From IMG/VR virus record IMGVR_UViG_2660238147_000004, positions 1-49,037 of that record: DNA of 49,037 nucleotides. One strand, written 5' to 3'. Under the pieces are notes generated by a model. The model did no database searches. It was not told where the DNA came from and was given only the letters and a program-made list of their open reading frames with translations. Below are positions 9,271-9,332 of the stretch, one piece after another. The position numbers and the translations under genes were made by a program. The stretch's first letter is position 1. The number at the start of each line of letters is the position of its first letter. Source of the stretch: a virus (lineage: Duplodnaviria; Heunggongvirae; Uroviricota; Caudoviricetes).

Positions 9271-9332
9271 TGGCGGAGAGAGGGGGATTTGAACCCCCGG
9301 TAGAGTTGCCCCTACTCCGGTTTTCGAGACCG
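9271..9332 (-). other. 3' fragment (62 nt) of tRNA-Ser(CGA): att-type junction repeat separating island and prophage
   Basis: Reverse complement reads GGTCTCGAAAACCGG-AGTAGGGGCAACTCTACCG-GGGGTTCAAATCCCCC-TCTCTCCGCCA (anticodon loop CGA, long variable arm, T-arm, acceptor 3' end + CCA); 5' third of the tRNA absent. Confidence 0.8.

Follow-up and report, generated by a model that had tools for sequence, protein, structure and literature searches.

Our analysis revealed that the 62 nucleotides at 9271..9332 (minus strand) of the window, that is, of the whole 49,037-nucleotide stretch of DNA analysed here, are with high probability the displaced chromosomal 3' part of the tRNA gene serU, and that two mobile elements arranged in tandem meet there in a double junction, a lambdoid prophage to the right and the TcpC island PAI-serU to the left. 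The 5' break of the fragment (9332/9333) is made by the phage, and the island has its tRNA-proximal boundary at the 3' end (9271/9270).

In fact, the minus strand at 9271-9332 reads CGGTCTCGAAAACCGGAGTAGGGGCAACTCTACCGGGGGTTCAAATCCCCCTCTCTCCGCCA, which matches nucleotides 29-90 of serU, the tRNA-Ser(CGA) gene of E. coli K-12 MG1655, at 62 of 62 positions; the original prediction of a 3' fragment of this tRNA was thus exact in both description and coordinates. Of the 5' arm of the anticodon stem the fragment keeps four of the five bases, starting with the second. It then includes the anticodon loop with CGA, the long variable arm and the T arm, and it closes with the acceptor 3' strand, the discriminator base and CCA. 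Identity with the tRNA begins at the remaining anticodon stem-loop, CGGT-CTCGAAA-ACCGG (9317..9332, minus strand); nucleotides 1-28 of serU are absent, and the 28 nucleotides upstream of the fragment (9333-9360) are unrelated to the 5' part of the tRNA, just as the replacement of the 5' third by unrelated sequence had been described. Because the gene is truncated and preceded by these unrelated 28 nucleotides, no tRNA is called at the fragment either by ARAGORN or by Rfam at gathering thresholds. A relaxed Rfam search returned only a match to the T arm of tmRNA and a match to RF04351, the plastid psbI-rps4 3' UTR, at 9274-9325 on the plus strand (40.9 bits, E = 3e-7, for a gathering score of 68); the latter is probably the antisense of the T arm and variable arm of a serine tRNA, namely a database cross-match and no feature. 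A 61-nucleotide pattern of the fragment, with three mismatches or fewer allowed, has a single match in the window and none in 100 shuffles, and therefore the fragment is not a product of chance. A second copy of the core was not found within the 49-kb window, because the window ends in the early region of the prophage.

The far end of the prophage was read from sister genomes, as the right edge of the window comes before both the integrase and the intact tRNA. The window is near-identical to the B2 E. coli genomes CFSAN067215 (O18:H1), UPEC129 and FDAARGOS_1304; FDAARGOS_1304 is 100% identical to the window over 24100-49037 apart from an IS21 insertion, and CFSAN067215 is 99.6% identical. By sister annotation, positions 9333..49037 (minus strand) hold a lambdoid prophage with an HK97-like head and a lambda-like tail, running from its tail-fibre end to its early region, so the element to the right of the fragment is the prophage that had been anticipated there. 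It runs about 4.8 kb past the right edge in FDAARGOS_1304 and CFSAN067215, where dicB, an exonuclease, a DUF4224 (xis-like) gene and a tyrosine integrase are followed by an intact serU, which is co-oriented with the fragment and separated by 28 bp from the stop of the integrase, and then by mtfA. Accordingly the integrase and the intact tRNA lie beyond the right edge as foreseen, and the second copy of the core that was to be sought in the flanks is this intact, co-oriented serU. In CFSAN067215, FDAARGOS_1304 and SMS-3-5, the fragment and the intact serU are both on the minus strand with the prophage between them. The complete order from right to left is mtfA, intact serU, the prophage (int and xis first, tail fibre last), the P arm, the 62-nucleotide fragment, PAI-serU with its P4-type integrase last, a 14-nucleotide remnant, the native flank and zinT.

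Two other regions of this prophage may be mentioned here. Two diverged tandem tail-tip modules occupy 13136-22458, with J' at 13136-16828, the tail assembly gene I' at 17172-17852, J at 17878-21750 and I at 21811-22458, and the copies are 71-94% identical. The closest complete genomes have a single tail-tip module, so that 24 kb of the window corresponds to about 19.1 kb there. An assembly artefact was considered for the duplicated J region and rejected, as copies just 71-94% identical look like a real mosaic or duplication of host-range genes. Moreover, the prophage has a cluster of tRNAs (Arg-TCT, Arg-TCG and one with CAT anticodon, called Met by ARAGORN and Ile by PGAP) together with the STnc100 sRNA and a hok/sok module, at 39240-39765 and 42675-42850; in CFSAN067215 another tRNA cassette (Ile, Lys, Thr, Gly) is found at the place of the cluster.

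The comparison of the two serU copies tells which half of the gene came from the phage. In the sister genomes the intact serU and the fragment are identical at 60 of 62 positions, and both differences belong to one compensatory pair: positions 48 and 59 pair with each other in the helix of the variable arm, as G48-C59 in one version and A48-U59 in the other. The intact serU of four lysogens (CFSAN067215, FDAARGOS_1304, the 606R7 record, which supplied the intact copy and no fragment, and SMS-3-5) has G/C at 48/59 and is followed by the phage P' arm; the displaced fragment, preceded by the P arm, has A/T in the window, CFSAN067215, FDAARGOS_1304 and SMS-3-5, and A/T is also found in the intact serU of K-12 and Nissle 1917, which are without the prophage. 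Therefore the phage supplies the working 3' part of the gene, and the crossover lies 5' of tRNA nucleotide 48. An intact tRNA-Ser with a different 3' half at the other end of the prophage had been named beforehand as evidence against the prediction. The 3' half there does differ, at two bases, but these make up a single compensatory pair, and since the phage donates the 3' part such a difference is to be expected and leaves the substance of the prediction untouched.

As for the site of strand exchange, it would lie in or near the anticodon stem-loop, judging from the sequences at the junction. By analogy with the anticodon-centred class described in the Islander paper (PMC4383910), the anticodon loop at 9322-9328 may be the strand-exchange (overlap) region, with the arms of the stem as putative core-type Int sites. 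In the attP of the free phage ST64B, int and an arm are accompanied by a tRNA-Ser(CGA) 3' part which begins at the same CGGTCTCG, and the Int of ST64B is 59% identical to that of the serU phage. When phage records were searched with the attR arm and a synthetic attP as queries, no free-phage record spanning the synthetic attP was found. Several matching records were considered as sources of attP and set aside: mEp332 appears to hold a fossil attR junction with chromosomal flank, as ev099 and PhiR70_1 may do, and 606R7 and 689R5 are prophage records, the former still with chromosomal flank. In mEp332 (PV340541.1, 43622-44156 region) the stretch consists of 197 bp of P arm, the serU fragment and 278 bp of native E. 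coli flank, and the phage's own integrase is elsewhere in its record; it looks as if an imprecise excision had picked up an attR, which then stayed in the phage genome as a fossil. The records of ev099 and PhiR70_1 match the same stretch of core plus arm.

The arms on both sides of the prophage fit a lambda-style attR, in which the fragment would be the core of a junction of the P-O-B' type. The P arm (9333..9636) is non-coding; it lies between the core and the first prophage ORF region and has no annotated gene. It contains CTTGGAATA at 9372..9380 (plus strand) and again, in the opposite orientation, at 9436..9444 (minus strand); the 9-mer is found nowhere else in the 49-kb window, and each of these sites is no more than about 110 bp from the core. 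The sister locus L004, of 47 kb, has four exact copies, every one of them in one or other of the two att arms, a number that none of 100 shuffles attained; the P' arm beside int, outside the window, has three direct copies, two exact and one with one mismatch. By their sequence and placement these repeats are candidate arm-type Int sites. The alignment of the phage Int with that of lambda starts at residue 1 and takes in the MGRRR..LPPNVY segment (phmmer, E = 1.7e-12), and the phage protein has the Pfam Phage_integrase domain; its N-terminus matches the arm-binding segment of lambda Int, which points to an integrase of the lambda-type heterobivalent kind. PGAP labels the integrase of the serU phage as frameshifted in three genomes (L004 40844-41869). 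The label was not accepted as proof of a dead prophage, since frame 0 reads through over 341 aa, the same length as the 606R7 integrase. The position of lambda Arg311 is Lys in every copy seen, including 606R7 (HDLK vs HELR); by eye, four members of the catalytic set R-K-H-R-H-Y (first Arg, Lys, second His and Tyr) seem to be there, with the printed alignment stopping before the Tyr. With this substitution and the frameshift label, it is uncertain whether the prophage is competent for excision at present.

The DNA to the left of the fragment, which had been called island-like, is the published PAI-serU, with an integrase and a tRNA-end repeat of its own. Positions 1..9270 are its tRNA-proximal 9.3 kb, and the annotation is that of the identical region in CFSAN067215 and Nissle. 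The genes in the window are RepL (3549-4130), an H-NS-like gene (5758-6162), AlpA (7721-7939, minus strand; Pfam PF05930, E = 9.5e-19) and DUF6387 (8156-8992, minus strand), and the GC content of the island is 31-44%, compared with 45-62% in the prophage. To the left of the window there follow tcpC, a MobQ relaxase, pilus genes and a P4-type integrase adjoining zinT; tcpC (WP_000562556.1) is on the same island, the one that ends with positions 1..9270 here, in CFSAN067215 and Nissle. PAI-CFT073-serU and PAI-536-serU are reported as 22 kb in length with 38% GC and TcpC (PMC7545054; PMC5521745), and PAI-serU is described as B2-restricted, lineage-specific and largely vertically inherited, and as being without mobilisation or transfer genes (PMC5521745). 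On this last point, the island encodes a MobQ relaxase, TraD, a PilV shufflon adhesin with type IV pilin, RepL and AlpA (L001 1411-6336; window 3549-4130 and 7721-7939).

The end of the island at the tRNA is given by CCCTCTCTCCGCCA at 9271..9284 (minus strand), the 14-bp tRNA-proximal repeat of PAI-serU, which is made up of the last part of the T stem, the acceptor 3' strand, the discriminator and CCA. In CFSAN067215 a second CCCTCTCTCCGCCA is found beside the island integrase, followed by the native flank of K-12 serU, CTTTATCAATGACTTATC. [quoted passage not shown] Since the core of the island falls within the end of the fragment, the 3' end of the fragment doubles as the tRNA-proximal att site of the island. 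The island integrase is P4-type (Arm-DNA-bind_3, Phage_int_M and Phage_integrase), and it is located at the tRNA-distal end beside the 14-bp remnant, away from the tRNA gene. From this remnant to zinT there are about 670 bp in CFSAN067215 (L003 34847-35530), compared with about 1.44 kb in K-12 (L005 2026-3468), and no yodB is annotated between remnant and zinT in CFSAN067215, the gene being retained in SMS-3-5; a deletion adjoining the island in the CFSAN067215 lineage is likely. Moreover, the end of the island and the P' arm of the phage have a 13-mer in common, TCAATCACTTACA, just 3' of the tRNA end (at 9244-9256 on the minus strand of the window, at about 41899-41911 of L004 and at about 2590-2602 of L011); at this place TCAATGACTTATC stands in the native flank of K-12 and TCAAGCACTTACG in the attP of ST64B. 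Accordingly, the mobile elements may copy part of the 3' trailer of the tRNA too, or they may share the ancestry of their att sites.

The two elements also occur independently of each other. Searches with synthetic junctions over 5,426 complete E. coli genomes returned 339 genomes with the island only, where it abuts the intact serU as in Nissle 1917, 342 with the prophage only, where the native flank is followed by the fragment and the P arm, and 39 composites with island, fragment and P arm, among them the closest relatives of the window. Examples of the island-only and prophage-only arrangements were viewed end to end; in SMS-3-5, for instance, the order is serU-int, tail fibre, fragment, yodB and zinT, and the empty site is seen in K-12, where the native flank abuts serU. 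The comparison with an empty-site genome that had been called for therefore yielded every expected state, and the suggested tandem occupation of the tRNA hotspot is supported by two elements at one serU, each with its own integrase. Fragment and P arm stay together in all 39 composites and all 342 genomes with the prophage only, no matter what adjoins the fragment on its other side, and beyond about 300 bp of shared arm the 39 composites have different prophages, which points to repeated insertion of phages into island-bearing strains.

Taken as a whole, the history of the locus may be outlined as follows. The island would have come first, by a crossover at a shorter site, namely the terminal 14 bp of the tRNA, where the T stem meets the acceptor, and would then have been inherited vertically in phylogroup B2. 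Later a phage with serU nucleotides 29-90 in its attP and a lambda-type heterobivalent tyrosine integrase related to that of ST64B would have entered the still-intact serU upstream of the island. Recombination in the region of the anticodon stem-loop would rebuild serU from the chromosomal 5' 28 nucleotides and the phage 3' 62 nucleotides, and would push the original 3' part to the tail-fibre end of the prophage, thus forming attR. The layout itself does not fix the order of the two insertions, and island first, phage second is the most likely one. It is quite unlikely that the phage came first and the island was later inserted into the 14-bp core of the fragment. The same layout would result, since the fragment keeps the T arm, the 3' acceptor strand and the 14-bp core and could serve as a secondary attB, and the 342 prophage-only genomes show that such a starting state exists. 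However, the island is B2-restricted, lineage-specific and largely vertical (PMC5521745), the 339 island-only genomes far outnumber the 39 composites, the differing prophages beyond the arm of about 300 bp speak for repeated phage insertion, and the island would have to pick the fragment over an equally suitable intact serU every time.

The fragment directly abuts the end of the island, and so it might be thought to be a long att repeat of the island itself, with the prophage integrated at some other target alongside. We regard this as highly improbable: the repeat of the island is just 14 bp, island-only genomes show a full serU and no fragment, the same fragment and arm are found next to yodB without the island in 342 genomes, and the other end of the prophage is at serU itself. 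A tRNA pseudogene left by random deletion or rearrangement, without site-specific recombination, would agree with the lack of an ARAGORN or Rfam tRNA call but is barely conceivable, as the breakpoint coincides with the edge of tRNA identity in the ST64B attP and is shared by hundreds of independent lysogens, the other end has an integrase and an intact copy in the same orientation, and candidate arm-type repeats flank both copies.

The fragment provides base-exact bounds for both elements, the prophage starting at 9333 and PAI-serU ending at 9270. The junction sequences separate island-only, prophage-only and composite genomes, and this is useful for annotation and strain comparison. It is also of mild interest that two independent elements occupy a single tRNA gene at separate sublocations, one at the anticodon loop and the other at the 3' end. 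The 14-bp core of the island is present three times, in the intact serU, the fragment and the remnant, and because of this there is a small chance that the island integrase and AlpA recombine the remnant with the intact serU into a circle of about 70 kb holding island and prophage together, or that the fragment is a live secondary attB. If so, the junction would be a working part for accretion or co-mobilisation and not a passive scar, and with a secondary attB the array could keep growing. Beside this possibility we note the MobQ relaxase and the pilus genes on the island.

Scars of att sites in the form of tRNA fragments, the serU island, serU prophages and tandem arrays have all been documented before, and no new biology is claimed for the junction. 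That a regenerated tRNA gene and a displaced fragment mark the ends of an element goes back to Reiter 1989 and Williams 2002, cited in the Islander paper (PMC4383910), which also describes anticodon-centred 'A' and T-stem/acceptor-junction sublocations, tandem arrays with one fragment and one integrase per member, and 125 arrays of two or more islands at one tRNA gene. The use of serU by prophages and integrative elements is reported in STEC O121:H19 (PMC8767318), and by prophages in O145:H28 (PMC7067040); the phage-record search moreover returned a prophage record named 'SerU-LTIIb'.

Compared with the attR (P-O-B') of lambda, the junction has in common a lambda-like Int with an arm-binding N-terminus and candidate repeats numbering two in P and three in P', whereas the sequence of the arm sites differs, the target of lambda is the gal-bio intergenic site and here a tRNA gene, and lambda Int has Arg311 where a Lys is found here. 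The ST64B module (int Sb28, xis Sb29) is similar in that the tRNA segment of its attP opens at the same CGGTCTCGAAAACCG and is antisense to int, just downstream of it; it is different in that its variable arm and T arm follow another serU sequence, presumably that of Salmonella, and in that the arm sequences and the rest of the phage differ. With the known PAI-serU of extraintestinal pathogenic E. coli of group B2 (PAI-CFT073-serU, PAI VII536), the island shares the protein accessions (Nissle, CFSAN067215), the length of about 22 kb, the low GC content, tcpC and the insertion at the serU 3' end, where its 14-bp repeat belongs to the T-stem/acceptor-junction ('J') class; in reference strains, however, it abuts an intact serU, while here the prophage lies between and the island abuts the displaced fragment only. 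Like the 'A' class of Islander, the prophage is placed between an intact tRNA gene and a co-oriented 3' fragment, with its integrase inside, a fragment that starts at the anticodon stem-loop and a working 3' part given by the phage; the two agree in all essentials, and the one departure is that the fragment's 3' end is followed here by a second element and not by native chromosome. Finally, as in the tandem tRNA arrays of Islander and of STEC O121:H19 (PMC8767318), each element has its own integrase and fragment at one tRNA gene, but here the two use different sublocations, and the result is a pair of nested, unequal fragments of 62 and 14 nucleotides.
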